Below, one piece after another: positions 16,301 to 62,678 of a DNA stretch of 64,000 bases (its first letter is position 1; each line of letters opens with the position of its first letter). The translations under genes were made by a program, and so were the position numbers. Below the pieces are notes generated by a model. The model saw only the letters and a list, made by a program, of their open reading frames with translations, was not told the origin of the DNA and ran no database searches. The DNA is from Lingula anatina. Lineage: Eukaryota > Animalia > Brachiopoda. The stretch is taken from positions 1,488,001 through 1,552,000 of the forward strand of contig CM120640.1 of NCBI GenBank assembly GCA_051362555.1, written 5' to 3'.

Positions 16301-18721
16301 TCTCCCCGCCTCTCACACGCCTCCCCATGCGTCGTCCCTGCGGGGTACAGTCATTAAATCTCGGCTCCATTGGGACGATGCATGGTGAGGCGTGTGAGAG
16401 GCAGAGAGACTTAAAAAATTAGGCTGTTTTCTTTTCATGTACTTCCGCCATATTTAGGTCGTGGCTTTGTAGAGCCATGGCTCAACTCGATGTGAATGCG
16501 GCCTAAGTAAATTTTGTTTATCTCCTGCCTCAGCAGCTCCATGAAGTGGATACAGAGAGAATGTGGATTACTGGAACAAAACTCTTCATCTCCCAGAAAC
16601 AATTTCTCAAAGAATTTTGCAAATCTCTTAACTATCATTCCTTTACAAAGAGGAAAATCGCTTTTGAAGAGAGGAAATTCTCCAATCATACAACCCCACC
16701 TCTCCTTTTTTTTGGTTTTGCATGCAGATTATTCAAAATGAAATTGGATATCTATCACAGAATCCGATTGTCTCTGCCTCAGTGACTTAATCTTAATGTA
16801 AAAACGAATAAATTACACCATGCATAAAGACGCTAATACAATTCAGCTTCTTCTAACTTATTAAAAGACTGATAACAAAAAATCCATCATCAAATCTAAA
16901 TTGAGTTGAAGTTAATTTCCAATGCTAATACATATGCTTTGGATTTGGCAAAGTATCAGCTGGATAAATATCTAACAGCTGGAATCACATATATGTAATG
17001 AAAGTTTAATTACCAACTGGAAATTAATATATAAATAGATAAGCTCTGGGTTCAAAAAGTAATAGCTAAAGAAAATGACATGTGAGTTCATAGATATTGA
17101 TATGTAATATGATAACAGCTGCAATGAAGTTGGCGTGTTGAGAGGTAGTGCATCTTTCAACACATAAATACCTCATCACCTACTGGGGTACACTTTTCAT
17201 TATCACTTAATAATCTTAAAATTATTAGATATCTAGTTGAAATATGATGTGCACAAAAAATTCTTCTGAAAGCAATTAAAATATCTTCCCTTGGTTTTTT
17301 ATAAGTCTGTTGCTATAATTATGATAATGTTTATTTATAACTTTTTGATTTATTACTCCATAAAATTGCCTTGAGTCCAAAAAGAAAGTTCAAATCATAA
17401 AATGCCTTTAAAGATGGCCAAATCTTAGAAGGTAATGCCAGTTACTAAGTTCTGAACATCGTCAGTCCATACAAATACATACAAATATATACAAATGCAG
17501 GCTAAACATTTAAATTGAGAATCACTTACATTAACTGGTGATAAACAGATCCAACTTAAGGCTCTTTGTCCAAAGTTCTATATTTTTTACCTTGAGTTTA
17601 AACAGAGAGTTCAAATCATCGATGATCACGTGTCTGTCTTCCATCTTCCTGCGCGTGTTCTTGATGGTGTGTACAGAGATGGAGTGGTGCACGCTGGGAG
17701 TGGGGAGTTCTGGGATACCATGTGTTAGCCACTGGTTACACATTTCGTCCACTTTATTAAACAACTCACGGCCAAATGAGTTAGCATCTAATCCTAGGGG
17801 ATGAAGAAATTTTACTCTGGTTAATAGGATTTACTGAATCTTAAATCAAAACCACTTGTGATTAAAATTAATCTACATTCAAAGAATAGACTATCAAGTT
17901 AGCATGATAAAATTTCAGCGCTCCTTTATCCTGCCTTAGAATGAGATAAACATTCATCTGATCAAGGTAAAGTAATTCACAGTGATCAATATGCAGATAA
18001 ACCACAGCAATGGCAGCTGACAACAGTGTAATGGAATCTGGTATCACCTGCAGCAGAAAAACCAGCCTCTTCTAGGAAAGAGAGAGAAAACTGCCCATTG
18101 ATTAAAACCAATAAGTTTTAGATATATACTGAACTAAAATGTAAATGTACACAGAAAAGAAGAATGATTTATTTTTATGTAATTGTTTACAATGTAAGGC
18201 CAGCAATAACAGCATATATTCCTTTACAACTGAGCTTTAATTTGTGGGCATTACAGTGAATATGGAATCAATAATCCCAGAGCAATGACATCAAGTACAC
18301 AGGAGAGGGGGGGGGGCGCAATGGTCTGAGTTCACAGAGGTCAGTAAATCGAGTACGTCCACTACCCCATTGGGTGGAAACATTCACCCTGGGTGTCTAC
18401 TCACTGGCAGTTCCAGACATAGGGAAATTGCTGGTCTGACGGGTCCTGACTGCCTGAAAAGCCAGAGGTCCTGCATGATTTTTTTTTTTTTTTTTTTTTT
18501 TTTGATGCAGGTCCTCTGGACTGGCAACGTTTACGTGGAAATACAAAATTACATAAAAATGAATCATGCCTAAATATCATCAAAGGCACCAGCTGCATTA
18601 CCTCCAAAGCTTTCCCCATGTCTATGGAAGTGGCCAAATCCAACAGATCCAGTTGGTTTGAGCAATACAAACTAATCAATACAGAACTAATACATAAATA
18701 TCAGCACCTTTCATGTCAGTC

Positions 18722-33200: not shown

Positions 33201-34029
33201 ACCAGTGTTTTTACAGCTTATTTTCTGCTTTTTGTCTGTACATTTGACAGCTTTGCTGCCTTGTTTTAAATTCAAATTAACTGAAATTTGCAGAAATGTA
33301 CACCAGTGTTCCTTTTTACAGTTTACCAATTTATTACATTAAAACCATCTATCCCAGGATATTTGAGAATCATCCCACAATTCCAGGTGGTGCTGACCAA
33401 CCAGATGACCACCCGTTTCAGTGTTGACCAACAAGGACAGTCGTACCTGATTCCGGCCCTGGGTGAGAGCTGGGGGCATGCCAGTACAGTCAGGGTGGTC
33501 CTGTACTGGGAAAACAGCCAGAGATGGGCCAAATTATACAAGTCGCCCTACAGGAAGGAGGACACGATACCATATCAAGTCACAGTGAGATATGTCTGGG
33601 ATGTTTTGTTTTTAATATGACACATCTGTCGCATGTTTTAAAGTACTGAATAGAAACACCTAACATGTTTAGATCAAATATGTTATGGGACATTTGGATC
33701 TCAGTTATTCAGAATTTCTTTCTCACATTTGTCCGTTTGATGAAACTGGATATTAATATCTTTGATAAGTAACGTGATAGAAAGATATATATGAAATTAC
33801 ATATTAAGTTCTTTATATCATCATACTAGATAAAAATTGTTTCTTTTCCTTGGCCTTGATAGAATGTTTAATGCGTATAATTTTTAATACAACATCCATA
33901 ATTTTGCAATTCCAGACAGGAGGAATAAGGGATGTACAAATTACAGATCCTGTAACACTACCCACACATACACATTTACAAGATGAGTCACAACCTTGTG
34001 GTAAGAAAAGGAAAATAGATACACAATGA
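30275..34029 (+). CDS. RAD51C: DNA repair protein RAD51 homolog 3 (RAD51C)
   Basis: Exons 30275-30401, 31023-31278, 32031-32197, 32379-32512, 32841-32972, 33387-33584, 33916-34029. [11 protein letters not shown]-terminus, Walker [27 protein letters not shown], Walker [34 protein letters not shown]-terminal KKRK NLS. Confidence 0.95.
30669..30940. mobile_element. MITE fragments in RAD51C intron 1
   Basis: 30669-30792 is homologous to the interior of the 16205-16503 MITE (cctctcacacgcctcccca...aaatctc.gctccatt). 30803-30940 is a separate element with TIRs ggcccccgtaactcgaaagcat...atgctttcgagtaacagggcc. Confidence 0.7.
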
Positions 34030-35115
34030 ACAGGAAAAAAGTAATGTTAGCCCCCATGGCAGCTTACAGAATGGATATGCCTGATATATTCTGGTGCCCT
34101 TTAAGGAAGACAATTACCAAGAGCATTGTACCTTAAAGGAGGATTGACAGAATGGAGATTGACTTCTAGTATTATTGATGTTGACAGGAGATGGTGGGCA
34201 CTAGGATGTTTAGTTCAGCCATTGGTTGCAGCAGATGTGCTAAAATCTAAAATCAGATTTGGCAGTTACAAGAAATTTTGCTGGAACAATGAACTTTTTT
34301 CCAAACAGACTGTAAATTCAAAATGGCAGCTTTAAAAATTGTTTCTAATCACTTGGAATGCCTGAACACAATTTAATACAGGTCCTTGAAAATTTTTAAA
34401 ATCATTCATGACCAAAAGGATGACAACTTCAGTATGTCTGCTACAGTGTTGATGAGCTAGGGTGGTTGCCTCCTTTCCTCCACAAATAACAGGTTGATTT
34501 GTTATGATTTGCCAACCTTCATGGATACTTCACTATAATTTGGAAACTAAGAAGATGGTAACTGGCTAGCATTGCCAGTATGTTGTTCACCAAGAGTGTG
34601 ATTAGATCTGTCAAAGATACTGGAGGAGACTTTTAACCTTTTTCTTCACTTTCATGGTCAATAAGTGCCCTTAATAAGACCATAGTCATACAAATGATGT
34701 AAAATTAACTGTTCAGTTTATGTCAAAGAACAGTTTTACAACTGTTTATGTTTAATACAAATATTTAACGAAAGTTTTGTTTGTGTCTAGTCTAGGCATT
34801 TGTGAAAAAAAACAAGGTTAGTTTTAGCTTACAACCTGAGCAATGTTACAACAACAATTCTGCAAATATGTATTATCAATATTATATTTTAATTTATGTA
34901 CATATATACATTCATTGCTTGATAAAAATGAATCTTGTAAAGTTTTTAATTGTCCTACTCCTTCAACTTATCGCTCCATTGTTTGGATGCCATTACATTA
35001 ACAGCCCTTGGTATTGTTTATCCCCTCTAGAAAACATGCTCTCATGGAGTGTGTAATTTGAAATTGGCTATTAATAGCCAACATTGTTCAGAGTTGTGCA
35101 ATGACCTGCAGACAT

Positions 35116-38104
<2,989 letters not shown>

Positions 38105-38274
38105 TTCTAAGTTTGATCTCTGCGGTTGATTCTGGCAGGTGGGCTGCAGCGTTTTTCAATATGGCGACGTTGCTAAGAGAAAAGTGTCATTAATGACCAC
38201 CGATGTAACGTTCATGCTGGCTGTTCCCGCTGTGGCACTTATGGTATCTTTATATTGGCCGTTTCGTTTGCGTG

Positions 38275-38288
38275 GTTACCCGTGAAAC
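38275..38288. promoter_or_regulatory. Candidate RFX X-box upstream of CFAP119
   Basis: GTTACCCGTGAAAC (reverse complement GTTTCACGGGTAAC) ~170 bp upstream of the ATG; second half-site GTTGCTA at 38169. RFX X-boxes are typical of ciliary gene promoters. Confidence 0.45.
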
Positions 38289-38437
38289 TCGGGTGAATTT
38301 AAGAAATTTGAAATGAAGTTGTTATTTTTTCTAATTCTGAGATCCTGTTTATTATAATGGCAGTTTTTCTGGAACGCATTTAAAAGGGCAAATTTGTGTG
38401 TGGGATCGGCGGGCGAGAATTAATTAAGAGACGTCAT

Positions 38438-38468
<31 letters not shown>

Positions 38469-40129
38469 CTTATTTATTTATTTATTGTGTTTGAAAGGAT
38501 CACACAAGCATTCGAAGCCTAGCCTCTATTCACGGTCAATCCTGTAACCAAATAACAATCCCAACTCATCGTTTCAGTTCATCGCCGTTATCAGAAGATG
38601 CTCTGAGCGCTATAGAGCAATCATCACTTTGTCAGTTCTGGTACAGATATTAGGGCATTTACGTCTAACGCGTCACTTCTCATTTCCTTCGGCGTTTTAT
38701 TTATACCTGACTTTAACGCCTTAACTCGCTGCCTCACGACAGGTGTTCGCAATGTCCAATATAACGCAGGTGGATCGGGAGTGATGAAAATTAAGCGGAT
38801 GAAATTTGTTATTGAATATATTGCAGCAAAGTATCATAATTTTCTCTTCCCATGACCTTTACTTGCCCTTTTTAATTTTATTTTTAGAGGATGACTTATC
38901 ACAGGCAATTAGGGAAAAACGAATTTCTCTTTTATGTGGTGCAACTATAGTTCACTGAAACATTATATACTATTTTTAATCCAAGATATACAATTTTGCA
39001 AAATCATTTAGCCAGAACACATGAAGCAGTCTACGGGCCACACATCTAGACTTGTACCCTAATTATTCTCTGTGGTTATTTATTAAGCTAGTTTCCAATA
39101 AACACCGACTTATCTTATAAAAGATAATCTTCTGATGATGCTGAGTCAGTTACGTTAGGGTCTGGGAATTTCTCAGGGGATCCCGTTTCTAAGTATTAAA
39201 GAGATGTATAATAGATAAATAAGTATCATAGATAAAGAGATTCCAAACAACACCTATGATACAGTAGTTGGGTAGGGTACCGATTAGGAGGCCCATTCAC
39301 GAACGATTGGTGTTAACCACAGTTTTCTGTGATAATATTTACAAATTATTATTGGCAATAATTATGAATATGGTAGCCACATGTAGGCCTACCACACCAG
39401 GTGGACCGCATCTGCTACAAAATTAAACACTTTTGATTTTTCCCTTGAATTCTGATAAAACGAAATCAAAAATATGTTGGTCAAAGTTCCACATTATCAG
39501 GATAAATAACATTTCACGTCATTGGGTTGGATAACATACTGTGTACGTATAAAACAGAAAACGCGATGATTCTTGTCGTTCTCCAGGTCCGCGCGCGCCT
39601 CCTCAAATCGATGTATGGAATCTGACGCAGTGCCGCGGCCATGCCTCGGATGAACGCTCTGAGTCACTCAGCCCCCGAAAACAATTTTCGTGGAAGATGC
39701 CTGATGAAGATAGACCCAATTTTAATAAACAACGTTGATTTAGACGTTGGTACGGTAACATAACGATGATATATTAGACACTTGTATTGCCGCAAGCAAG
39801 CTACGGACTGAACTAGCACTGAGATAGCTTGCAAGAGCTCTGTATATCCGTCTAGATTGCAGAATCAAGAGGCCGAGAGCTAAGTAAGCATTTGATACAC
39901 CGCTTATAATAGTCTGAATGTTTGCCCTTTACTGTTAGTTGGCGGGGAAATGCATAGCCGAGTCCAGGTAAGTGCTTCAGTGTCAGTAATACCGCAGAAA
40001 AACAACACGGGCCAAGGCTGACCATAGGCTATTGAAATTACAGCTTGTTCCTGACGAACTGTTGGACTGCTTAGCGGCCAAGTCTGTGATAGTGAGATAT
40101 AGTCTGTGATGTCGAAATATACATGTGAA

Positions 40130-42474
40130 GCTTGATAGACACCTTCGCTGCATGAGGACATCTTGCTAATGAAGAGCGACTGAAGATCAGGTAAGTTTCC
40201 TTTTTTTTTTTTTTTTTTTTGTTTCATCTTGTTCTTGCCATTATATCCGGTCTTTAATGAAGATGAAATTCATCATATCTCCCTCTCTTTCCCTCTTTCT
40301 CTCTTTCTCCTGCTTTTCCCATTGTTTTCTCTCACACACTCACATACCCCCCACACACACAAACATACCCCCCCCACACACACTCACATATCTCACACAC
40401 ACATACACAAACACACACACACACACACACACAGCAGTCACACGAGCACACAGCCAAGAAAAGTGAGAGTAAAACAATGTCATTCAATTAAAGTTATGGT
40501 CTTTCTGGAAAATGGAAGGGTTTCATTAAAGTAATTTGGACAGTAGGTGTGATTGAACGGCAGTCGAAGTGATTAAAACGGTCTAAAGGTGTGATTGGAA
40601 AGCTGTCTTTACGATTATCGATTGAGGCGTTCAGCTACTCATCAGATCTTGAACTTTGGATGAACTCCTCAAGAAAAGAGTACATGCACCTTTAGATGGA
40701 GTTTAAGTGGTTTTAACACCAAGCGCTTTAAATATAGGCTTTAGAAACACAGAAAACAATTTTCGAGATTTATCTGAAACTTAAACTTTTATTGAAGTGG
40801 GCAGTGTGACACATCTTTCCGTTTCACACTTCGTGTGACATTTGGATTCACTGACACCCTGTCAAAGGAAAAGGTCGCTGAGCAGATCATGTACAGGTTT
40901 ACTAAGTGGTTGATCAAATTTCCTCATGGCTGGCTTATTATCATACCCCACCACATACCTCGTGTTTGAGTCGAGAGTGTGAGCATACGATACGTTGCGT
41001 GCAAAGATAAATATTTATATACATACATCCCCTCGCTTTTATTGTTAAATGAAAGTGCAAACGTCGAAGAATATGTGCTCAATTCAGTGGAACTAAGAGG
41101 CCCAAACAGCCAGAGAGGGTAAGAAAACACGCCTGTTTGTGCTTCAGTTATTCATTTGTTAATTATGTGAAATGATAGATTTTGATTTGGGGGATTAATA
41201 GCTCATGATTCAACAGACATTTATTTCATATTAGCCCAAGAAAGATGGGTTGCATACAGAGTCTAGCGTATACTGAGAAGCAGCTGTTTCAATGAACCAT
41301 TTCCAGTGTTATTTTTAAATCCCATAAAATGACTCAGTGTGTCTTAGTATCTCTTTTTACCTGTTGTTTAGATACTGAACCCCGTGCACTGCCATGAAGA
41401 TTCTCCTCACAGCGAACTCTCACCAAAGGAACAGAACTTGATGGTAAGTCCCATATTTCTTTGATGTTTTGGCTTGAAGTGTGGTTTGAAGAGTGCTGCG
41501 GCTCAGGAAGTTTCTTTCGTTCTTATTCCGTATCAAAACAAATGAAGTAGTAATTCATCCTGAAAATGATTCCTGAGATGACCTGAGATGGCCGTTTGAA
41601 TGGAGGGGGTGGGGGTGGATGGGGGTGAGGGGGTAGAGGTGGGTGGGGGGTGAGGGGGGGTAAGGGTGGGTGGGGGTGAGGGGGGTAGGGCTTAGGGGTG
41701 AGAGCGGGTGCCGCGGAAACAATGAGCTGGTCCAGACACTCGATAGACCAAAGTAATTTGGTAATAAATAAATTTATTGGTAAAGAACTTAGAAATAGGG
41801 GTTAATTTAGTTGCGAAGTTAAAAAAAATACTACTTGGCATATCATCAATACCCTCCAAAAAGGAACCTCAGCCCAGTGTTGACATTTTTGCTCTCTGGC
41901 GAAAAAAAACAAAACACCGTTTTATTTCCTGTGTAAACTTGGCAACGAGCATAATACCCTTTGCTTTGCAAATTTTTCAGCAAATTACGCGCTGGCATCT
42001 TAATGACACATCCGAGTGCGCAATGTTGAGAGTGCCAGAGATAGATTGGCACACGTTTTTCGGCCTCGGCTCCCACTTGATTACATAGCCCAGTGCCACA
42101 TTACCTACAGTGTTGTAATCACGGAATATGCAGGGGAACACACGGCACTGACGTAAGGGGTGTTAGGGGGAGGCTTTTTTTTCACCGACTTTTGATCGAG
42201 AAATACCAGAGAAGCCAAATGATAGACCTAAGTACAGATCTTTGTTGTAAACATTGAAGTAAATGAGCGAGTCTGTTAATTTTAGAGGATTCGTTTCGAA
42301 GTTTGCATCATGACTCATCATTGCAGGTATGGCTTCAGCGTCAACTTTGGAACCATGCCTGTTGAATTTGTTCTAACTAGGAAGGACAGAGCGCGGAAAA
42401 GGACTTGCAGGGATATTGCACTTCTTTGTTGCTTATGGTAGTATACCTTGATATACATAAGTCATAAACACGTA

Positions 42475-42521
<47 letters not shown>

Positions 42522-44494
42522 TTTCCATGCAGTGTTCAGAGGAGGCAAATCCCCACAAAATTTCACAAGTAAACAACGTAAAGGAATGGATTTATCTGAA
42601 AATTTGTAAAGGATCTGCTCCTTGTAAAAAGTCTCATTGAAGCCAGTGAAGAAAAAGGAAACTGAAACGAAATAAAAACACCATAATTTGGATTTGCTTA
42701 AAACGCGTGTAGGTGGTTTGGGTTTGGCATTATATACTAGGCAGAGAGCCCTAGCTATCATTACATTAATTCCTTGTTGTTTTTCTTGGGCCGAGCTGTT
42801 TTAACCGTTGGAGCGTTAAAGGTTGCTTCTAGGTGGTTGTTATGGTTTGTTGACTGTTATACTTTCCTGCAATTTTTAAAGAACGTTTTGATGAGGTTTT
42901 TCGTCTTAGCAAACAAGAGCCGACATGAAGTGGAACGCGGTAACATTCACTGCCCCCTCCCTCACCCACTGGGAGACATAACAATTTTCCAGATAGAAAA
43001 TAGAAAAAAATATTATTAGACTTATTCACATCCTTCTTGGGCTCAGATGCCGTTCCTCTAAAATAAAAAACTGCATGTGCACTCCCAAAGTAAGATTATT
43101 TGTCATGAAATATAAATTTTTTTATTTTTTTATAAGGAAGAAGGAAGAATGGAAACTAAAAGGGCACCGCTGAGATGCCATATATGTTATATCTTTATCT
43201 TTAATTGGATTGAAGGTTTCTTACTAGCGTGCTTTGATTTATGAACAAGCGTAAATAAATCACATGTTAGAGAATGTTATTCTTATGTACTTTACATAAA
43301 GGATAGCTTATGGGCCCTTGTAGATGGCAGATAGTGGCCACTTTTTATTAATTTATGTTTTTTTTTTTCAGACCAACTGGCCCCGAGTCACCCACCGCCC
43401 AAGAATATACACAACTTTACCTCGAAAACAACCAATTACGTTTGAAGACGCCTCATCTCGCGTTACCTAAAAGACCTTTTATCGCCAAAGAGATCCTTAT
43501 TCTAACTGATCCTTGTAACAGGAGAAATTTCAGACCAAAACCACACCTGTGCTGGCGTCTTGCACTGAAGCGGAAACATTTTAAGAGAGAATCATGGATA
43601 TAGCTGCCAAACGCGGTTTAGCTTTTGATGTTCTCTGTAAGACCACTTGCTGGGCGCCGGCGTGAAATAACACGGAAAGTTACCTCAAGTTGTGCCTTAA
43701 AGAATGAACATCAGATTTACTGGAGACGTAAGCCCCGTAAGATGAGAAGTTAAACTGTCTCTTGCCGCATATTTCGGCGTCTTGCATAAGAGCTATGTGA
43801 GTGCAAAAAATCAATCACGCGTGAAAATTACGCATACCTCGTTTTTCGCTGGAATGGATATTAAGATAATTCCTGGGAACTTTGCTATATTGCCGTAGAG
43901 AGTTATTATTAACGTGGAAACAAATCAACAGTTGTTATCTAGACGACTGAAGGCTACATTCTTGCACGTGGAATCATTCCTTTTCATCGCCAATCAAAAT
44001 CACTCTCGGCGCCAGGTAACTTGGAAGGGAAAGACGCATTTTCTACGTACAACGGATTTATTTACCCGAAGAAATGAACTCATCACTCGTACAAAACTAT
44101 TGCGTTGCTAAATACTCGCGCTGCGCGTGAACACTAACAGTTAGATAATATAACATTTTTTTCAATTTCTATCCCAGTCGATCTCTTATTTCACCTGTTG
44201 GGTCAGGTAAACAAGTTTAAAGAGGCCAGAAAAGCCTATATGCTCAAGCGAGGACGGCTCTCTCTACTCGTGTTTGTTGATTCCAAACAGGAAAGCTGGG
44301 ATTATGTTTAAGAACGAAGGAGTGTCCACATGAAATGAAGTTTAAGCAGGGATATCGGTATTGGAAGAGTCCTGTGACGGAGCCGTAATTGTATTCTGTA
44401 CATATTTAATTTAAATATTTACGGTAAATCCGGCCTCAAGTACTCATACCTAGGACAACACCACTACAGTGGCTTATAAATTCCATCCGGCGAA
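40130..44494 (+). other. Probable 5' non-coding exons/5' UTR of the giant TRIM gene
   Basis: Strong donor gatcag|gtaagt at ~40189; internal exon tttag|41372-41442|gtaagt; acceptor ttttttcag| at 43370 leading without an obvious further intron to ATG 44495; CpG-rich region near 39580-40190. Confidence 0.45.
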
Positions 44495-47400
44495 ATGGCG
44501 TCCCAGCTCACGAAAGAAATAAGCGACCAATTTTTGGTCTGCAAAATATGCTTGGAACCATACAAGCAGCCAAAGACGCTGGACTGTCTTCATGTATTTT
44601 GTTCTGACTGCATAGAGAAACATATGGACGCCCAAATGGAGCGGACGTCGTACCGCTACGCGTCTTACATGAGAAATGTCTCGTGCCCGTTGTGCCGAAA
44701 ACGAACAGACATACCGAACGGAGGAGTCCGGAAACTGCCGGACAACTTCCTTGTCTCCAACCTCACCGAGATTGTCAACAGAAGGAAGCCCAGTGCTGTA
44801 CCCCTCTGTGATATATGCCACAATCTGCATTCTAAAAACAACGAGGCTGCGTCCAAGTGTCTTGAGTGTTCGAAACTCCTGTGTAAGTCCTGCGTAGATC
44901 TCCATACCCGGACTAAGGTGACGGCCCACCACAGCCTGTGTGATGTAGAGGTGGAGAAGGACATTCAGTGTCAGAGTCATCCAGAGGAACAGGTCAGTTG
45001 AGAAATTCGAGTGCTTTTGGTAACATTTTTAATTGTTTGAAAATTACTATCCTCTGATAGCAGGGGCCTATTAAATAGTTGACATGATTAAAGTAAATAG
45101 GTCGTTACAATAATTTTGAAAAAGGCTACCAGCGGTACCCTGTGATCAGAGAGTAGTAAATTATTGCAGTTAAATATAACTTTGGACATAATAACGAATT
45201 CGTAATTTTATCCATGACATAACATTTGTAGTTATAATATATTGTTCTGACTGTTGTTAAAATTGGGACAGTTGAGTAAGTTTTTTATAATGTCAGTCGT
45301 AAGCAATCGCCTGGAAATAACAAAATTGCTGTAACCATTTCTAGACGATTGAGGCAGCCCAGGTTTGAATGCATTAAAAAAAACTCAGAAGTTTCTGTAG
45401 TCTATACAACCAGAAGTTACTAAAACACGAACTGTTTATCCTTAACTGTTACTTTAAAGTGTTTAACCCTAATCAGTTTTATCAAGGAAACAAATCCGTG
45501 CTTTATCTCCTTATATCAATTTAGAACGCTTTGTGATTTTGCAATCTTTGTTTTGACTTTTTAATAGCTGCCTTAGAAGGTTCACGATTATTCGCTTTTT
45601 GAAATATTAGTTTTTGTTGCACAAACGTTACTAATAAGTATAGTATACGCTGCATGTATCCTAAAAACTATTTAAGTACAGGGTCATATTTCCGAATAAT
45701 GTAGTATATATCAAATTTGTAGGGCTTAAATCAACTGCTGAATTAAATTATATGTTTCTTATTTACAATTCTAATGCAAAAATTTCTTTAGACATTTACG
45801 TTTGACTGAGGACTGAAAACCATTGGAACATACGTATAAATATTCTTCTCTTGGACATGTTTGAATAAGTATGTTGATGTTTCAATCATTATTTGTTCGT
45901 TTTACTTTTGTTTATTTAACTAAGTTTATTTAGTGAATGGCAGAGTATCAGTATATGAATGCTACTTGCTTTTTTTATTAAGTCTTCTCTAAATCATTTT
46001 GATTTTCCAGATTCGCTTTTACTGCGAGCCTTGTCAGAAATGTATATGTGTCGTCTGCGCATTTCAAGAACACAAGGGCCACGAGGTGTCGTCATTCAAC
46101 GAAGGCATGCAGCGCTATCGAGATTCTTTACAAACTTTGGTGCAGTCAAGCAAAGTTCGCATCGAACAAATCAAATCTCAGTTGGACTTCATAGACGATT
46201 GCGATAACAACAAAAGTGAGGCAGAAAAAGCGATAAGGGAAATGACAGAGATTTTTGTATCTCGTGTTCGCGCAAGTGAGAATCAGCTTATAAATCAATT
46301 GAACGATATGTACGGCGCAGAACTCCTGGAATTTCTGCAGAAGCGAAACATGTTGCAAGATAACCTCAACGGCTTGCAAAGCACGTGCAATCTAACAGAA
46401 ATCCTCATACAAAACCAAAACATCGAAATGCTACTGATGAAAAATGATATACAACAAAAACTCGAGTCTCTACTGAGATCTGGCGTCAGAACACCGCCTG
46501 CTAATGCAAAAAAGCACATCTCTTTTATCCCAGGCTGCGTATCTCTTGGCCATCTTTCCACAGACTGCGACGAAACAGAATTAGCCGAGGGGAGAATGGC
46601 GCTGCTTCCTAAAGGAGTCACGGTAGACACCCAGACGCCAATAATAACCAACAGTGAACAAGAAACCTCCATGGGAAGTAGCATGATTGAGGTGCTATCC
46701 CATGATATTCACACCCAGACGCTACGCAGACGGCAGAAAGACCAGGCAACAGCGCCGGAATTGCCGTTCACGTATACCACGGGTACGATGACCGCCCAGG
46801 CCATAGTCCGCAGCTACGGCGTCGTGACCGACGAGCCCGACTTCAGACACAAGCGAATCCAGACGGAGGAATTCTTAGAGAGAGGGCAAGAGAGGCGGGA
46901 CAGACGCAATCGCGATCGTTCCCTTTCCCGCGTTTCTCATAAGGAAACGAATACCGAACGCACCGCGTCGCATGAAAAGACAACGTGTACTGAGATCGTA
47001 GAACACAGCGATCAATCTACCTCAACGGCCGTCGTCACAGTGGACGCATGGATGTCAACAGCTAAGATTAAAACAAAAGACGCTCAGACCGAGTCGAGAC
47101 CAGAGACGGAAGATAAAAATGTGTCAATTATCCCTTCATCTTGTCATCAGAAAACGATGACAGATCCGGTTGAAACATGGGACGCTGGGGCTAAGGAGAC
47201 AGTTGACGCTTTTACAGATATGGTGTCGCTGCCGGAGACAATTGAAGTTGGGACGGGGACCACACCCGTAGAGTGTACTGATAAATACGTGGACGCTTAC
47301 CGCGGCGAACAGAAAGATCAGAATAGCATGACAACCACATGTTCGGTGACAAACAAAAAAGTTGGTACGATACAGCGACAACTGATTGAAGTCGGTATCT

Positions 47401-50400
47401 CTATGCCTCCGTTAAGAACTGCTGTTGCCGGCGTTTCTACGGATGACTTGCCATGGCCACCGAGGGCGGCAACGTCGGATAAAGGCACACTGATGGATAT
47501 TCTGCCAGGATTTGATCAAGAGACAGTTGGCGCTGACGTATGTACAATGACATCTCCTTCCGTAGAAAACAAGGAAACGTCTACAGATAAACTTTCACTA
47601 TCAGAAAAGGCTGTGATGACGCCTAAGCCACCAAGGGTTCACAGAAAATGCGGCACCACTCGCGTACACACTGTTGAAACTGGCATCGCAATGCCAAAGA
47701 TAGTTATGGTAGATCAGGCCGTGTCGGCGGAAATACCGCCTGATAAACCTCCAGTCTCCGATCAAGGGACTTCTACAGAAGTCGCAAGCCGTGAAATCGC
47801 AACGGAGACGGCAATGGGTGCTCCAGTAGACAAAGCGACAGGTACGAACATTTCGATGTCTGACAGTAGCACGGAAACTGTTGGTACATGTTGCGTTGAT
47901 ATCGGTGTAGGAGACTCGGTGTTAATTTTTACAACCGATTCCTCAGTTGGAGACGCATCAGTCTTTACACAAGATACGTCAGTGGCAACAGTGAACGCCA
48001 AAACAACTGACAGCGCCACTGCCACGCCCACACTGGAGACAAAAGACGCTCTAACATTTACGGCGCCACCAGTGTGTTATACAAAAGCCACAGCGACAGA
48101 CATATTAACCGGTATTGATAAGCTGTGTCAAACACCAACTGTTTCTACCGTTGAAACCGGTACGTTGGTTGCCGCTGCCACCAAAGACGCAGAGACATTT
48201 ATGCCTGTAAAAGAAAGTCATGATAAAGAGACACATACATTTGTAATGCTTTCTGATAGCGGTGTTGGTGACGCGTGTGTTTTAAGCCAGGATTGTGCCA
48301 CATGGACACCACTATTTTACTCAGACAAGGAAACGGGTATGGATCTTCGGCCGAAAGATGCCAGCACTGCAACAACGGCTCCCGAGCTGCGCCATTTTGG
48401 TACTGATACCGTGATCAAAGTCAAAGACGGCAGCACAATAACTGAACGTGCAACTACAGCCGACGTCTCCACAGCAACTCCTCATATTACCCGCGCGGAG
48501 AAATCTTCAGAGACGTACTCAACGCACCTTGACGTGGCAAGTATAAGCACAATGACAAAGATTAGCACCAAGGACGCCGCGTCCGACTCTTTCCCCGTGT
48601 CTGTGGCGAATAAGGCGACCTATGTCCAAGTTGCTACTCGGGATACAATGGTTGGTGATGGTCACGTTACATCTCATGATAAACATACGGAGGCAATGGT
48701 GGATACAGCGGACGGAGTTACGTGTACTGAAGCTGTTGGTATTAGTGATATGGCAACTGACGCATATAAAGCAGTTGTTGTAGACACGGGTACTGCAACT
48801 GAGCATGCAGAATTAACTGATAAATCGTGTGGTTCTGAAATAATGTTCAGTGAAAAGTTTACCGGAACAGAAACAACAGAAAGCTGTGACAAGCAAACGG
48901 GTATGGAACATAGGACTTACGCCGACAAAGCCATACGAGCCTTTCCTCATATGAAACATTGTAAAATTGGAACGAAAGAGAAAGATCTTGCGCACAAAGA
49001 GACTTCCACTAATGTTATTATCGTTGACAATGGATGCGGTGATGGCGTCATTGAATGTAAAGATGCAACAACTACTACAACTCGACCTCAATACTCAGAT
49101 TTTGGTACGGGGTCAAACAATGTGATAGCAACGTCCAAGGGTACAAATACACGAAGATTTCGTATGGTAGATAAATCTATCGTCTGCTCAATGAGACCAC
49201 TAACTGCCAATTCTACAACCGAAATGGATGTCTTACAAACTGCGGAAGTTGGGGTTTTGACTGACAAAAATAATTATGTGGACAAGAATGTTGGGTCTAC
49301 AATATCAGTGGTTGACTTTGGACAAGGGGATAGCACCGTATATACTGCTTCCATATATTCTCAAACACAAGAAATTGTAGTTTCAACATCTGACAAGGGA
49401 TGTGAAGCTACTATAGAGATGCACAATAAAAATGTTGGGACACCGCCTACTATTCAAAGTGATATGTCCACTGCCACCCGCCCTATTGTTACTGCTGACA
49501 GGTCAACCCTAACAAGACAGACATCTTTCATCGACAAGGAGTCAGACGCTTTCACCATACCCATGCCTAGCAAACAAACAGGCACAGACTTGCCTGAGAC
49601 ATTTGACAAGGAAAGCAACACCGATGAAATAATCACAGATCCCGAAGCAGAATTATTAATGGCCAAAGAAATAAAGGCCATGGTCAATGGGTTCCAAAAA
49701 GATATTGGTGAGCACGAAAAGCCATCCTTTAGTGACAAGGCTACATCGGCCAGAGTAAGAACAAAAAGCAAGAGTACTACATGTGACAGCGAAATGAATA
49801 CAAGCAATGAATACACCCAGACCAATGGTTTGGAGGGAAGGGAGGATAAAGCATCAAGTCCAATCAAGTTCATCTACTCCAATGATGACATTTCCCTTAC
49901 CAGAGAGGACAGTTTGGAAGAAATTTCGTTATTGGCATCAGTTTCGTCCAAAGTGGCCATGTTTGATCCAAACAAAGTCTCCTCTCCTGAGCAGGGGAAA
50001 GTACAACATGTGCACAGACGCCCAGACCCCCCATCAACTCTGGACATTGGGAAATCAGAAAAGAGCACGTCCACTGATGTTTTATTCCAAGTAGATCAGC
50101 AAACGTCACCTATTGGGTCTCCAACAGACAAGTTAAGTTTTGTGATGAAAGTTGATAAAGACGTCTCCAAGTCGCTTGTTTTGACGAGAGGAAAGGGCGG
50201 TCAGACAGCACAATTTACAGCAAGTGTGAAAAAGAAACAAATGGTGGAAAACAGTACAATGACAGACCCACTCGTATTTCCCAGTGGGTTTGTATATCCT
50301 TCATACGAGGAAAGAGATGACAAGGAAAATGTAATTCCTTATACCTCTAAGAAATTTATTCAGAATCGTTCTGTAGGAACTGGAACTTTACCCGTGTCAG

Positions 50401-52292
50401 CTGAGAAACTCAGAGATTTGGACAAAAGTAATCACTTGATAACTCAGTCAGTATCCACTCAAACTGCACTGAAGAAACACAGGAAAGCTGACAAGTGCGT
50501 GGGGACAGATATGCAAACTTACAATGGTGAACTGACAAAATGCATCAGCAAGTTGAAAAACGTCACTCAACGCTTGGAGTCCCCCAAGCAACAACCTTTA
50601 GCGAGAAGCCAAAGACTAAACATCAACCAATTGCTCTCTGATTCAGAATCAATGGATTCTTTCAGTAGTGGCTCTTCCAAAGGCAGAGGGTCATTGGGTG
50701 AGATGGATGGTCATACCAAGGAATCTTTGTTAGTATCCCCTGATCACCAAGATTTGCAAGAAAGAAGCCCTGCACAATCCTCTTCACTTGAACACCATAC
50801 AGAGCAAGGCCAACAATCTGCAGCCAGCTCCTCACCATCAGGCCCTTCCAGTACGACGTCTTCTTTTGCAAGAAAAAAGCTTCATGATATGCCAGAGTCA
50901 CATTCTAAAGACCTTGAAAGACTGCAGAGGCTCACTATGATGCTGAAGGACATTGAGGCCTACAAGAAAAATACAAGTGATACTAGTAGTCATGAAGGAA
51001 CACATGACATATCACTGGATGATAGCAGTACCCAGGGTCATCATTACCCATCACAGCCACAAGTCTCCACAACTAGCAGTGTTCAAGACATGAGCAGAAT
51101 ATCATTCAAAGAAATGCCAACTTTTAAGGCCAAGTTAGGGAGATATCCCAGGGTTTCCCCAGAACCGAGTAGGTCGCCAAAACCTACTGAGGCTAGCCCC
51201 GAGTCGAGAGCAACAGAACCTGCCAAATGTGGTCCCAGTGAGCCTGATAATGCCACCAAGGACCGTAGAAAAGCTCTAGATGACCTCCAGAAGATGCTGT
51301 CCACCATAGGCACTGATGATGTAGCATTTGGGGTCCAGGTGCCCTCAGCTAATGGTACTGTGGCACCTTCAAGGCATTTGCCATCCCATCCACCACATGC
51401 TTCAGAGGATACAGAACTTACCACTGCAGAGCAAGACCCACTCATGACAAAGCACAGAGCTGTACCATGTGTCACATACATGGTTCAAGATCAGCCTTCA
51501 CAGGAACAATGGGAGAGAGCTTCTCCAGCTGAAACAGCAACCTCAGAAGCAAATGTTTCAGTGGACCAAAAAGCTGATAAACTACCCCCTGCTCTACCAC
51601 CAAAACCCCCTTTGCCTAGACTAGGCACTACTTTACCAAGTGCTCAAATGGCAGCAGAAACCAAGGCAACACCACCCAGACAAAAGCCAAGGCTTCCACC
51701 AAGAACTTACAAACCGAGTTCTTTCAGTGCTTTGGGGGCACCAAATCAGAAAGATCCGGGGACCCCTAAGCAGAAGTCATATCAAAGAAGCCAAACTCTG
51801 AGCAGCCCTGCTGAAATGTTGACACCAACTGATAACCAGATATCACAGAAGAAACAGTCAGGTGTTTATGACATACGGACTCCAGCTGTTTCACCAGTAA
51901 GGAACACCTCTATCACAGGTAAGAGGGCGCCCTGGAGGAGACAAACCTTAGGTGGCCCCATTGCTGCACCAAAACCTATGGAAACTCCAAGAAGTAGAAG
52001 CGAAACCAGAATCCACCACAGTCAACAAGAGAACAAACCATCACCTGAATCTGTTCCCATGAACAAACCCCTGGAAGGTCAATTTTCGAACCAGCCACAG
52101 TTTAAACCACCATTAAATGTCCGTCAGAAAGCCACTGTTCACTCTCCTCCCTTTGAGTCCCCAGTACTTCACTCCCCAAAACTGTCAAGGAAATTCATGA
52201 AGGAAGAACGCCAACATCAAACACTTGAAATCCAAGAGATGATCACTTGGGTACCAAAAGTGGTTCTACATGATGAACAGTATCCAGTTTGA
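44495..52292 (+). CDS. Giant tripartite-motif (RING-B-box1-B-box2-coiled-coil) protein, ~2259 aa, with long TxT-repeat region and Pro-rich tail
   Basis: Exon 44495-44992 (RING CKIC...CLHVFCSDC...CPLC; B-box1 CDIC...CLEC...C..C...H) joins in phase 0 (CAG|gtcagt...ttccag|ATT) to a 6282-bp exon 46011-52292 (B-box2 H...FYCEPC...CVVC...H.GH, coiled coil). N-terminus resembles the TRIM2/3/45/56 type (ISDQFLVCKIC). Confidence 0.9.
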
Positions 52293-54848
52293 GATGACTA
52301 ATAAATAACAAATACAGGGGCATACTTGACAGTAGTGCTGAAGTTGAAAACAGGACTTAGCTTAGGGCTCATCCCCAATAAAACCATCTGTCTAGTAGAT
52401 TGATCAAACTCTGTGGGAACTGTTGCTGAATGTAATCACATAAGTCGATTGACATGCCTCCACTTGGCATTGAGTAGAATACTGAAAAGCTGGTGATACA
52501 AGTATGTTGGAAACAAGAGGAAGTGTGTTAATCTGATTGCATTCAGTGAGAGTCCTTATGAGTTGGGTTTATCTACGTAGACTGATATTTTCAGTGGGAA
52601 TGAGCTATTACATAGACTCCTATAAATTTTAGCCCAGTTACATTAACAAGTAAATTGATGATTTCTTCATTCATGTTTTTTTCTACTCTGAGTGTCATCC
52701 TCAGTAGGTGTTTGACTACCAGTATGTTTGGATGTCAATCTTTGAACACCATAAACATATTGTTGTATCAAAAAATGTAACATGACCTATGAAATATGTT
52801 TTTGATTGCATTTATATTGCATGCTGTTTATACAAGTTACTAATATCATATAATGTAAGTGCACATGCAGATTTGCCTAACAACTTCCAGAAAACATTTA
52901 TTTCAAAATAATTTATCTTGATATAATAAATGCTTTAATATTTGTTTTATAAATGAAAAAGCCAACATTAAATAAAAACAAAATAGAGCATTAACGATCT
53001 CTCTATGAAACAAAAACTAAAAGATTTAAGAAAAAAACGGCTGCCTGATACCTTTGCATGATATGTCAACAACATATAAGTCGGACATTTCTGACAGAAA
53101 TATATTTTTAAAACTTCCCAGCATGTAGGTCTTTAAGCAAATGGAGGAATACCAGTAATTTAAGATGATGCAATACAGTTTCAGTGAGATGTAACTTGCC
53201 AAAGGCGTTTAAAATACCTCAACAAGTCATGTTATTTCAGACAAGTCTTGCATTTGTAAGACATGTACAAAACCAATATGATAGGGTCCAGAATACGGTA
53301 CAATTTAAATATTTAAAGTTGAATTCAGTTTAAGAAATAAATTTAGGTTTGGTAGGTAGTCAACGTGAGATGTGGTTTATGCTTGCTTCTGAAGCTTTGT
53401 GTCAGATCTGCATATTTTGCTTACAAGTTTTGTTGATTTTTAAACAAATGTAATTTTAATTCTATTTCAGTAATAAATGTTTTACACGTGTGTCTGATTT
53501 CCTTTTTGTCATGATGTGTACTCTATCCACTAGACATGTTAAAACTCATGATTTCTTAATTTTTTTATTTGGTACAACAAAGTTATAACAGTATACCAAA
53601 GTAAATCTTAAAGAATTATTTAACTTTAACTTTTACAAATAAAATGTCATTTTTCTTAACATGAGATCTAATTCAAATATCTAAGCAATCAAACACAAAG
53701 TATTCAGCATAAACCTTGAATTATGGTTAAGTAGTTGTGGCATAGTTCTGAGGACAAGTTTTTGTGCAAATAAAACAATTGGTTACAATAATGATATATG
53801 AAGTGTGCCACTAATAAAAATATATACAAGTGTATATAAGATTAAAACAAAAGTAACAGGTATGTCTATTGCTTTTTTGTAAAAATTACAATACCATCTA
53901 GTTGACGGTACAACAAACACTAACAGAAAATGTGCAAAAAGATTGAATACTAAACGAAGGCATATGGAATATAACTGTAATAACCATTTGTTTAAGTATA
54001 TTCCTTATAGCATAGTCCTTGTCATACTATAAGTAATTCAATGCATAATATATTCTTTACTCTGCAACTGGTGTAACAATAAATAAGATTTTCACCTAAC
54101 CTTATGGAAGGTGATTTGCTAACAATAAATAAAATCAGTACCACAGAATCACCTTTTTGCAATATAAGAACATGCCTTTTTTGGGTTTTTTATTTGGCTA
54201 CATCACAACTTCTTTGACATTTATTGAGATCACATTTTGGTTTCCCTGGTATTGATTCTTAAATAATCCCTGACAGAATTTGAAAAAAAAATGATCACTT
54301 ATCATATAACATACCAGGATTGGCAGCATTTTCAAGACAATTATAAAAGAAAAAAAAAAAAACAATGATTCAAACTTATAATTAACAAAAATTAAAATAA
54401 TGTGTATAAATACAAATTGTGAATTTGCTGTATAATATAAGCATTTACATCAAAATTTCTAACATAAATGAAGAAATGACTAGAACTTCTTGGGAATAAG
54501 TTATGGTTGAAAATCTATACTTAAACAACAATAATAATCTTATTCCAAACACTTCAAAAAATCAGCAAAAAAATCACTGGTATGGTAGAATTACATGATG
54601 AAAAAGTTATTTTGAACGTTCAGAACTTACAGTGTTAAAGCATGCACTGTGGTGCTTCAAAATAAAATTTTCATTATCAAAACAATTCATGAAATTAAGA
54701 CAAAAATAAGAAATTGCTAGAAATTTTGTCAGCACCAGAAGTACGCACCAATCACCCTGAGATACAGGAGACATGGGAGTCATACTGATAAGAGAGGTTA
54801 GATTCCTGAAATCTCCAAAACTCAGGGGAAATCACCCTTCACAGGGGA

Positions 54849-57800
54849 TCAAACTTCCGATCCTTCACGGTCATAGCACGCCAAGCTGTGTCTACGATAC
54901 GGCTCGTATTCCTCCAGTGTATCCAGCATGGGGCCTATCACGATGTTGGAGGCGCTCTGCTGGCGGACATGTTGACTGAGGACCCTGGATGCTGGATGCT
55001 GCATACTGAGAGGACGGTGCATTTGTGGTTTGCTTTTACGCATCTCCCCTAGTATGTCACCTGAAAGTTAAATTAGATTTTTTCATAATATATGGATAGC
55101 CCCAGTAAATTCTGATTTGGCAAGGTTGATTAAAAAAACATCAATCTTTATAGGATTCTTTTGTTTCATTTATAAAATCATGAGATTTTAAACTGATTTC
55201 ATTGATGTATTGCACTGAAAAGATTCTAACCTTGCTAAATTAGTGAAAACTACATTTACATCACATTTAAATTATCATGCACAACTGTCTTACTGAAAAC
55301 ATAATAAACATTTAAATTACCTTATGAAAATTTCTTTTAACACAAAAAGTAAAACTATTACTAAACATTCAGAGTTGCAGGCTAAGTAAAAATAATAACA
55401 AAGTTGAAAATGTCACTTAGACTGGGTTTCCATAAACCTATCGTACGAGTACTCTGAGGGGATTCTCACTAAATTGCATTCAGTTTAAAATATCTGGCAC
55501 ACCCACTGAAGCTGCTAGGGGGGTAATTAACTTTCATGCACGCTTAAACTGAATGCAATTTAGCAAGAATCCCCTTGGAGATAAATCAATCCTGCTAGTA
55601 CAATAGCGTTATGGGAATGGTCCCTTAGTGAACATGAAGTCTTGTACCTGAGGACTTGGACCTCAGCAGGACCTCTGGTACCACTGTTGCGGGAATGATG
55701 GGCTCTGAGCCACCCTCGTAGTAGCCTCGTACCCCAAGATACGGGTCTACTATCTGGGCTAACAGGGACTCCACCTTGAAGAAATTCTCTGTTGGGGGGA
55801 GACTCTCTCTTAACCTCTGGAAAAAAGTTATGATGATTTAATATATAGTATTCCATCTCCAGGCACAATGTTGTTTCCCCATCATTCATTTGGTGCTGAA
55901 TATTTAAGAGTTTTCTGAAAGTTTTTTATCACTCAATTTTTTCCTCTTACAGACGGGTTCTACAATTCCAAAAATTAATCTAAAGAAATTTATTTCTGCA
56001 TGATATAAATAATAAACTAAAAGATACTTAAGTCTATAATTTGACATTTATAACTATAATTAGTCTATAATAATTAGTTTATCATATCAGCTTATCTCAC
56101 CTGCAACACTAACAACATTTGAGTAACGGCAGGTGGAATTTCAAACCCTGCCCCTACACATGCTGAAAAAATATATAAGACAGATAATAAATATAAACAA
56201 TAATACTGTGAGGGACATGCTTGACATGCTTGATGTTAATTACAGCTACGTGCAGTTCACTAAATGTTATAGTTGGTTTAAATGTCATGTTAGTCAAAAC
56301 TAAATATTCTAAAAATTATCTAAAGGGCACACTAGATCAATATTTACTGATGGTCTGACACATCTACTGATTCAAGTGGACAGCAAAATAGTAGGAAAAT
56401 ATTTGGGAAGTAAATAATATTAGCTTTTGTCATATTCGTGAGAGGATAAAATTATATCTTGATAGCACTTTTTCTTTTGCCATTTTGAATAAATTTTGCC
56501 GAGATAATTTCTTTAATGATAACTTTTTAATTTGAGAAAAGGGTATTAAAAAAAAAACAAACAAAAAAATTAAATCTGCCTTACTAAGTACATTTTAAAT
56601 ATGTATGTATTCCCATTTCCAAAATGAAAATACTTGACAAGAGGCAAACCAAGCAGAACAAATTTTTTTGGGAAAAAATCAGCAAAAGCAGGCCTACCCA
56701 ACTACCAGACTTGGCACCGAATGATCCAGAATTCACCGGTAAATCGGACCACACTACCCATTTTCAAGGTGTGTATCAGATCGCATTACATAGTATCAGA
56801 CGCGACACCGCTCTTGCCTAGTACGCGATGTGATAGTGACGATTCTCAGCGGGGTTGAAAAGCATTGCATCACCACTCAAAATTGGTTCAGGGAAATACT
56901 GTGAAATGCGATCTGATACACACCTTGAAAACGGGTAGTGGTAGTTGGGTAGGCCTGAAAAGGCAGTTAAAAATAAAATTAGCTGGAAAACCATGATCAT
57001 GTAGTAACTGTGATCAGTCAAGTCTTTTTCTTCACGCTGTAAAATGAGTCTTTCTGCATGGTTCTTAGCTCCTTACTGACACGTAGCAACAGAAACCAAA
57101 AGTTAGTTACTGTGGAAATTAATAAAAAAGCAAAACAAAAACCAAATACCTTCAAACTCAGTTTTTAGCAAAACAATATCTCTAAATCCCAACAGAGTGA
57201 CTTGGCGGATAGAGAGTTCCTTTGTCTGGAAGTCCCAAGGTTAGGAGGAACAAGAGATAGTTTAGTAAGGGTGACAGTGACGTGTGAAAAAATGCACAAA
57301 AGACACAACACTGAAGAAAAACAAAGTCCAAAGCACAAGTAAATTAGGTGAAAGATTAACACTATATTAAACTATGTGCACATTAGTCATATTAACATAC
57401 ACATTTTATATAAATACTGTAGCAAAATGTTAAATACATAAGTAAATCAGCTAATTTGTGCACAGCAATATAGGTACAGTTTTTGAACAATCCAAAAATA
57501 TTTCAATATTTTCAGTTAATTCTACACTAAGTCTTATGCATGCAGTTATTCTGTAGCCATCATAATGATTGTAGTTTATAATTCTGAGAGTATCTTTCCT
57601 ATCTATTTTGGCATGCAATGTGTAAAGAATAAATAAAATACAAGCAGACCACCCATCCCTTGTTGACCATAAATTAGACTGCTCGGTGGTATGCTCAATA
57701 AAAAATAAGTGAGCACAGGCACCAAAAATGATGCCAAGAGCTAATTCAAGGGCTTGAAATAATTTTTACATAAAGGAACAACTAATCTTGATATATACAT

Positions 57801-62025: not shown

Positions 62026-62678
62026 ATGGTAGCTTCAAAGCTGCCGGAGAAAACCCTTTCGTTTTCCCGGGTGAGTATTTTTCCGAGTTTTGTTATAAAT
62101 TTTATCCTTATGATCCAAAGAGTTACGATGCACCTATTACGTAGAACTGTTAAAATTGACTGCAAAAGTTCAGATATCCACGTTTTTCTTTCGCAGTTCT
62201 TGCTGCGTGCCGAGGTGTTGAAGCTGTACAGGCAGTTTGGCCGCACTCTGCAGTGTGTGCCTGATAAGAGTCACAGAGCAGAGCTGCAGACCTGGGTGCG
62301 GACTGGGTTCAAACAGAATATCGGACTGGAAGATGAAGTAATTTTTGAAAAACGCCATTGTGCAATAAATTAGACACAAACTGTAGATGAATAAAGAAAT
62401 TAAAATAAAATAAGTGAATTAAAATAAAATTGTTGAGAAAAAAAGTTGTTGGCTGCTTATATGTACATGTAGAACAGAACTTGTACACTGCATTTGATAT
62501 GTAAAAATATACATCTTTTACATTATTTGCAAATATAATTTTGTCAAAAATCAAATGGTTTTTACATTAAATTTTTGTTCTCAATTGACAGCTAGCCATC
62601 AAGATGTGTATCAGCCAAGCTCAGAAGCAGCTGAAGGAACTTGAGAGGATGTTGAAATTGTCTCAGGTATCAAAGTGA
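62026..62678 (+). CDS. LYRM2: LYR motif-containing protein 2 (mitochondrial)
   Basis: Exons 62026-62070, 62197-62337, 62592-62678: MVASKLPEKTLSFSR|FLLRAEVLKLYRQFGRTLQCVPDKSHRAELQTWVRTGFKQNIGLEDE|LAIKMCISQAQKQLKELERMLKLSQVSK*. LYR motif and downstream F; closely parallels recalled LYRM2. Confidence 0.9.

Follow-up and report, generated by a model that had tools for sequence, protein, structure and literature searches.

A 64,000-nt stretch of the Lingula anatina (Brachiopoda) genome (GCA_051362555.1, contig CM120640.1, 1,488,001–1,552,000, forward; hereafter the window, in whose coordinates all positions are given) contains a spliced and expressed gene for a tripartite motif (TRIM) protein in which the RING, B-boxes and coiled coil (RBCC) are followed by an array of about 50–80 short units resembling binding sites of the dynein light chain LC8. 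It is likely, given these sequences, that the array binds LC8 multivalently, whether as a rod or as a sensor. To the more specific reading, that it forms a cooperatively LC8-loaded, stiff, hinged two-chain rod on the head of a likely active E3 ubiquitin ligase, we assign a probability of about 0.65. The predicted architecture of RBCC, long array and short closing segment marks a lophotrochozoan clade. We found no description in the open-access literature of a TRIM protein with an LC8 array, or of six gene identifiers of the family, in line with an earlier prediction from the DNA alone (the original prediction), whose author was aware of no TRIM class combining an RBCC with an LC8-type array.

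TRIM head and unit array

The head and the array are encoded in one transcript. A short open reading frame (ORF; 44480–45001, +) codes for the RING and a B-box, and an open frame of 2099 codons (45993–52292, +) contains the remainder of the TRIM protein; joining 44495–44992, which begins with the ATG, to 46011–52292 over a phase-0 GT..AG intron gives a protein of 2259 residues with no internal stops. Reads across this junction were present in runs X4, X5, X6, X7, X8 and X9, and in neither X1 nor X2, which have little depth there. RNA depth over the long exon was unbroken in X4, X7 and X9 and lay on the sense strand in the stranded run X4, and the read mapping showed no splice joints inside this exon. 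The original prediction would have fallen had the 6.3-kb exon not been part of the TRIM transcript; RNA reads, however, joined it to the exon that encodes the RING. The predicted protein is 98% identical over its full length to L. anatina LOC106154916 ('uncharacterized'), with 35 differences. On the basis of the junction reads, the absence of DNA repeats and the existence of orthologues, we rejected an artefactual ORF or an unspliced DNA repeat.

TRIM proteins are defined by an N-terminal RING, one or more B-boxes and a coiled coil, in that order (PMC13591260). The same order was found here, with Pfam matches to the RING and B-boxes, coiled-coil helices in a model of the snail homologue P0040 (predicted local distance difference test score, pLDDT, mostly 78–98) and RNA-joined exons. 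The nearest solved relatives of the head in a PDB search were TRIM3 (E 5e-23), TRIM2, TIF1-beta and TRIM56. An Arg directly follows the last RING Cys, at the linchpin position, in 6/7 proteins checked, with a Lys in the Lineus protein. Because an Arg at this position is described for all TRIM RING/E2-ubiquitin structures (PMC13591260), the RING is likely to be an active ubiquitin ligase.

Past the coiled coil we found no Pfam domain or PDB relative in the window protein or in 8 relatives, as expected from the prediction that no filamin, NHL or SPRY domain follows. This region of ~1,300–1,320 residues lies inside the one long exon and is rich in T, S, V and D. Autocorrelation at a lag of 12 residues (residues 209–1505 of the long ORF) was 2.85x for Asp and 1.83x for Thr, bearing out the 11–12-residue period predicted for 46620–50510; we place the array at 46617–50510, with the most regular part at 47565–49625 (residues 685–1371) and looser spacing towards both ends. 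The pattern [DEHNS][KRQA]x[TVSCI]x[TM] matched 40 times, versus a mean of 5.4 and a maximum of 12 in 500 shuffles. We also scanned the array with a unit matrix that started from an LC8-like seed pattern and was trained on four homologues only, with the window protein left out. At thresholds of 3, 5 and 7 bits, the non-overlapping units numbered 68, 48 and 34, versus 14.4, 5.5 and 1.7 in 60 shuffles and 19, 8 and 2 in the reversed sequence, indicating that the signal is directional. At 3 bits, 31/67 gaps were of 11 or 12 residues and 11 further gaps of 23 or 24; at the laxest (zero) threshold there were 84 units, versus 34 in shuffles, and 51/83 gaps were of 11 or 12 residues. Counts thus ranged from 34 to 84 with threshold, and a fair count is about 50–80, lower than the 80–100 units first estimated. 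We found no DNA-level tandem repeat in the array region, and a self-BLASTN comparison of the array DNA returned a single 20-base match, consistent with the prediction that the repeats have diverged at the DNA level.

An array of T-x-T units might alternatively stack upon itself as a beta-solenoid of the ice-binding type, or as a cross-beta fibre, without any involvement of LC8. The 12-residue coil of a beetle antifreeze protein counts in favour of this explanation. T-x-T arrays on neighbouring coils are, moreover, typical of beta-solenoid ice-binding proteins, but in those proteins x faces the core and the folds are stabilised by disulphides or aromatic residues (PMC4838330). In the array, the x position is taken by S, G, A, M, Q, E or N, long irregular insertions occur, and we found no fixed Cys or aromatic ladder. 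AlphaFold2 predicted no autonomous fold: a 300-residue array piece modelled without an alignment had a mean pLDDT of 36.5, with values <50 for 297/300 residues, and the array of the C-terminally truncated P0040, modelled with a 49-sequence alignment, had no strand of >=3 residues. These models are modest evidence against a solenoid, which we regard as very improbable. A search of the ESM Atlas was uninformative, with one weak match (0.78, to a fungal cluster) for a fragment from the window, while the array of Patella had no match.

Fit of the units to LC8

The LC8 consensus is described as [D/S]-K-x-[T/V/I]-Q-[T/V]-[D/E]; position -2 favours small residues, a Pro within the core is inhibitory, and binders without the Gln exist, including myosin 5a and Pak1 (PMC3078936), and N, M, S and G occur as anchor variants (PMC12057147). 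To avoid circularity, we derived a motif from 9 tails by unseeded expectation-maximisation, with 40 random starts. The highest-scoring result, [VPI]-x-T-V-D-K-G-T-[SGN]-T, had a log-likelihood of 1232, versus 171 on shuffles; a shifted register from the same search (log-likelihood 1137), which reaches +2, was V-D-K-G-T-[S/G/N]-T-[D/E]. When seven published LC8 ligands were scored with the shifted-register matrix, a smaller set than the full published list of natural binders, six reached 8.6–11.4 bits, within the top 0.06% of random 8-mers. We then considered 191 sites selected by positions -4, -3, -1 and +1 alone. G, A or S occupied -2 in 88 of these (background 20%) and D or E occupied +2 in 54 (background 15%); the anchor, position 0, was Q in 21 (background 4%), one of Q, M, N, S or G in 117 (background 26%) and Pro in none. 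Across 9 orthologue pairs, positions -4 to +1 were 59–86% identical and the flanks 38–46%. A gap of 12 residues corresponds to an 8-residue motif plus four residues, the linker length called optimal in the human LC8 client KANK1.

Several units therefore fit the LC8 consensus at -4 to +2, the anchor aside. Domains that self-associate are common neighbours of LC8 sites (PMC12017986), and here the TRIM coiled coil precedes the array and the closing segment, with a possible role in dimerisation, follows it. The original prediction is supported in part; at the sequence level its LC8 scaffold has good support, from an unseeded motif in the known LC8 direction and register, from LC8-type preferences at the free positions, and from canonical TQT-type sites at the corresponding place in a sister paralogue. 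LC8 protein L004 differs from a solved LC8 at 2/89 positions.

As the original prediction had recognised, most units lack the central Gln: the anchor was Q in 5/68 units and one of Q, N, M, S or G in 44/68, the rest being A, E, L and others, and the strict pattern K-x-[TVI]-Q-T occurred once in the array. LC8 might accordingly bind only a few canonical Gln sites, leaving the remainder as a disordered Thr/Ser linker, as decayed units, or as sites for another partner or modification, such as phosphorylation or O-linked N-acetylglucosamine. Such restricted binding would fit with most anchors being S, G, A or M, with the lack of measurable LC8 binding by isolated weak KANK1 peptides, and with the database labels 'mucin-like' and 'serine-rich adhesin-like' given to orthologues. 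In the absence of DNA repeats, however, decay would not preserve a 12-residue pitch and a conserved core at -4 to +1 from phylum to phylum, and the unseeded motif agrees with LC8 ligands at each position. The mucin labels are automatic, whereas the protein starts with an intracellular RBCC, a start that also led us to reject a secreted mucin. Moreover, doubt arising from the scarcity of Gln is weakened by KANK1, in which a disordered linker (L2) past a coiled coil is reported to bind 15 LC8 dimers. The KANK1 sites are weak, mostly lack the Gln (VNT, TNT, TST, IGC, VMA) and are separated by linkers of 3–4 residues; single peptides showed no measurable binding, whereas the whole array bound with sub-micromolar affinity (10.1101/2025.07.16.665182). 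We consider binding at Gln sites alone to be quite improbable. The Gln anchors that do occur in the family are concentrated beside the RBCC (21/63 among each protein's first three sites, versus 54/637 among later sites), as expected of a nucleation zone.

The spiralian family, its closing segment and its tails

Relatives were found in annelids (Paralvinella), a chiton, an octopus, gastropods, bivalves, a nemertean (Lineus) and a bryozoan (Watersipora), under the automatic names mucin-like, serine-rich adhesin-like, TRIM56-like and TRIM45-like. The check for conservation that the original prediction had proposed was therefore positive, with RBCC and array together in annelids, molluscs, the nemertean and the bryozoan, and the annotation of the 'mucin-like' and 'serine-rich adhesin-like' orthologues can be corrected to intracellular TRIM proteins. 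In 21 named long proteins picked by hand, 3 of which were in the matrix training set, the region past the RBCC contained 27–77 units at 3 bits and 13–67 at 5 bits (2–5 in shuffles), and gaps were exactly 12 residues in 394/856 cases and 11 residues in 66/856.

A quick RBCC tree of 62 proteins, hand-chosen from ~250, placed the long proteins, with some fragments and shorter forms, in one clade of 32 rows with a support of 100 (Shimodaira–Hasegawa-like approximate likelihood-ratio test). A 14-row clade of short paralogues (support 91) was sister to it (joint support 90). Named members of both clades are all spiralian, although these searches do not establish that other groups lack the family. 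The short paralogue is ~590–710 residues long (for example, Patella P0253, Physella P0245 and tapeworm P0088), and 12/12 such proteins, including that of the tapeworm, have 1–3 xQT sites past the RBCC (23 in total, versus 4.4 expected). Beside these lie 1–2 non-Gln units at 12-residue spacing, giving 2–5 units altogether. P0253, P0245, P0047, P0088 and their relatives also share a conserved [ED]K[AG]VNT unit, near the KANK1 site type. The short sister protein is a small and easy case in which to test LC8 binding by a TRIM protein.

The original prediction overlooked a conserved, short, helix-like segment that ends the array. Its family consensus is G-K-[IM]-x-x-C-I-S-K-L-R-x-V-S-x-R-L, and it was present in 20/21 named long-clade proteins (not in Lineus) and in 0/12 short paralogues, with no Pfam match. 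This amphipathic segment probably forms a helix and may be a second point of dimerisation.

The tail of the window protein had 6 class I/II SH3-type matches, versus 2.0 expected, and just 2–4 LC8-type matches. The predicted SH3-ligand tail thus holds for the window protein but is not a conserved tail feature of the family. Other motifs were enriched in 27 long proteins, with counts dominated by related molluscs: RxxSxP, which we take to be a 14-3-3 motif, occurred 38 times after the RBCC (14.6 expected; 22 proteins), LxxIxE 28 times in the same region (5.0 expected; 22 proteins), and [ST][KR][IL]P, of the SxIP type, 28 times in the tails (3.9 expected; 16 proteins). SxIP motifs target EB1, and LxxIxE binds PP2A (PMC7308724). 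These motifs of the relatives, absent from the window protein, point to microtubule ends and phospho-regulation as a candidate far anchor.

Gene features and neighbouring genes

Table 1. Features of the TRIM gene in window coordinates
Feature	Position	Strand	Basis and remarks
Non-coding exon 1	41376..41443	+	5' end approximate; reads join 41443 to 43372
5' untranslated region (UTR) portion of exon 2	43372..44494	+	RNA depth; 1123 bases
First coding part, residues 1–166 (RING, B-box 1, B-box 2 start)	44495..44992	+	ORF following in-frame stop; matches start of P0001
C3HC4 RING finger	44540..44695	+	PF00097, E 9e-12
B-box 1	44804..44935	+	PF22586, E 5e-5, under curated cut-off; Cys/His pattern kept in homologue alignment
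Phase-0 GT..AG intron within B-box 2	44993..46010	+	Junction reads, 6/8 RNA runs
Remainder of B-box 2	46011..46094	+	PF00643, E 6e-7
TRIM coiled coil, residues ~197–324	46101..46484	+	Long helices in model of snail homologue P0040; limits transferred by homology
Array of ~50–80 LC8-type units, 11–12-residue pitch, residues 369–1666	46617..50510	+	Periodicity, matrix scan, unseeded motif
Short amphipathic closing segment, G-x-[IML]-x-x-C-I-S-K-L-[RK]-x-V-x-x-R-L	50520..50582	+	Conserved in long clade
Ser/Pro-rich C-terminal tail, residues 1693–2259, and stop codon	50589..52292	+	PxxP cluster ~51573–51713
3' UTR	52293..53500	+	End approximate; depth drops in 53325–53705 bin; AATAAA at 53472

The first intron is 1928 bases long, with GT..AG ends, and its junction (41443–43372) was present in 3/4 RNA runs. 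The 5' UTR portion of exon 2 contains 11 upstream ATGs, a possible means of translational control. In the 3' UTR, loose read ends and opposite-strand joints at 52300–52560 suggest a short dispersed, partly palindromic repeat. Over 43800–55200, most reads of runs X7 and X9 were only 90–95% like the window despite carrying the same species label, suggesting strongly diverged populations or cryptic species.

A spliced gene at 35100–38170 (-) matches Pfam CLAMP, and we take it to be the gene for flagellar C1a-32, CFAP119-like. Three X6 reads joined 37638 to 41361, consistent with an alternative first exon of the CLAMP gene head-to-head with the TRIM exon at ~41376–41443; levels of the two genes differed between runs X5 and X6. 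Further away are a PP2C phosphatase gene (13356–17830, -) and a RAD51-family gene (30992–33620, +). In human, PPM1E, RAD51C and TRIM37 are neighbours, and the PP2C and RAD51-family genes hinted at orthology to TRIM37. We rejected this orthology, since the window protein has no MATH match and has two B-boxes. The link of the TRIM gene to a PPM1E/RAD51C/TRIM37 neighbourhood is likely a coincidence, and the PP2C–RAD51 pairing may be old synteny. The window also contains, at 3908–4912 (-), an open frame of 334 residues whose product has a homeodomain of the TALE class (Homeobox_KN), and an exon-like stretch at 62170–62373 (-) with L-Y-R spacing like that of an LYR-motif protein.

Proposed assembly and known LC8 clients

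In the LC8-loaded rod that we propose, the RBCC would dimerise and let both tails out side by side. Tails of TRIM coiled-coil dimers fold back and exit near the dimer centre, so two chains leaving there can run parallel, as LC8 requires. The original suggestion that the coiled coil pre-aligns two chains holds only with this fold-back, since the TRIM coiled coil is an antiparallel homodimer (PMC13591260). The Gln-rich sites adjoining the RBCC would nucleate LC8 loading, the weak non-Gln sites with linkers of 3–4 residues would fill cooperatively, in the manner of KANK1, and the closing segment would clamp the distal end. At ~3.5 nm per LC8 dimer (53 nm/15, from KANK1), 50–70 sites would give ~175–250 nm, with hinges at longer gaps, and rod length would set the spacing of the E3 head at one end from the partner of the motif-rich tail at the other. 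Among the LC8 assemblies that we found described, even the longest would be several-fold shorter than such a rod.

The array might also bind LC8 as a sink or concentration sensor, with occupancy controlling RING clustering or self-ubiquitination and hence turnover. ASCIZ/ATMIN is reported to use 7–11 LC8 sites as a rheostat (PMC12017986), TRIM activity needs higher-order clustering, with self-ubiquitination common (PMC13591260), the number of units is not fixed among taxa, and no folded substrate-binding domain follows the RBCC. ASCIZ-type sensors, however, have strong sites and uneven linkers, while uniform short linkers and weak sites give a loaded rod in KANK1, and here the 12-residue gap dominates; the conserved closing segment and the mollusc tail motifs also suggest two functional ends. 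We therefore consider a sensor unlikely.

Several observations weigh against the rod, or against LC8 binding in general. The range of 27–77 units across taxa is a poor fit to a fixed-distance spacer, and none of the SxIP, LxxIxE and RxxSxP motifs occurs in the window's own protein. Gln is the anchor in only the 5/68 sites noted above, with one strict match, and non-TQT LC8 sites tend to be weak (PMC12057147). The seventh scored ligand, GRINL1, reached just 1.0 bit on the unseeded matrix, and Val at -5, which is favoured in phage display, was not enriched (16/191; 8% versus 7%). Because orthologous positions occur among the 191 sites, the p-values for these are inflated, and significant trends are few when the 11 Lingula sites are taken by themselves. 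Finally, the RING and B-boxes of the P0040 model also had pLDDT values of only 45–75, so low pLDDT in the array is weak evidence for disorder.

If the units bind LC8, several hundred weak non-Gln motifs under selection would supply data that LC8 predictors reportedly lack (10.1101/2025.07.16.665182; PMC12057147). The family offers a natural series, from 2–5 sites in the short paralogue to 27–77 in the long clade, in which the scaling of cooperative weak-site loading, the dependence of rod length on site number, and LC8 gating of an E3 become testable. A broader proposal is tentative, with odds somewhat short of even: that this is an undescribed lophotrochozoan TRIM class (brachiopods, molluscs, annelids, nemerteans and bryozoans), expanded from the 2–5 sites of the short paralogue, in which 30–75 LC8 dimers would form a hinged rod of 100–250 nm, the largest single-client LC8 assembly, acting as an LC8-switchable ruler between the ligase and microtubule ends or a cytoskeletal anchor.

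Among TRIM proteins, the TRIM2, TRIM3, TRIM56 and TRIM45 classes carry filamin/NHL domains. They share the RING, two B-boxes and coiled coil with the Lingula protein, in which by contrast neither filamin nor NHL was matched past the coiled coil; matches in Pfam and the PDB to the C-terminal domains of other TRIM classes (SPRY, PHD-bromo, MATH and others) were likewise not significant. The Lingula protein is thus a TRIM by its RBCC but belongs to none of the classes that a folded C-terminal domain defines. The short spiralian paralogue, for which we also found no description in the open-access literature, is the sister by the RBCC tree and has canonical xQT sites, but lacks the long array and the closing segment.

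Among multivalent LC8 clients, Nup159, with 5 sites beside a coiled coil, is reported to form a rod (PMC12017986). Nup159 and ASCIZ resemble the TRIM array in zipping two parallel chains; they differ in having strong, mostly TQT sites that are far fewer in number, and in ASCIZ the linkers are uneven and occupancy is partial. The original statement that LC8 clients have only about 5–11 sites is outdated, as KANK1 has 15. The KANK1 preprint describes a cooperative hinged rod (predicted) of ~53 nm, places 15 LC8 dimers among the highest known occupancies, and asks whether other proteins do likewise (10.1101/2025.07.16.665182). The TRIM array shares with KANK1 a position past a coiled coil, weak and mostly non-Gln sites, and short linkers, and the KANK1 site ASRGVNTE scored 10.4 bits on the unseeded matrix of the TRIM family. 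In KANK1, 15 sites over ~250 residues are followed by ankyrin repeats, whereas the Lingula protein has ~50–80 units over ~1,300 residues behind a RING/B-box head and lacks a folded C-terminal domain, and the two proteins have no homology outside the motif. LC8 binding is established for KANK1 and predicted for the TRIM array. On this comparison, the TRIM array bears the signature of KANK1, enlarged three- to fivefold, and likely works like KANK1 while being unrelated to it by descent.

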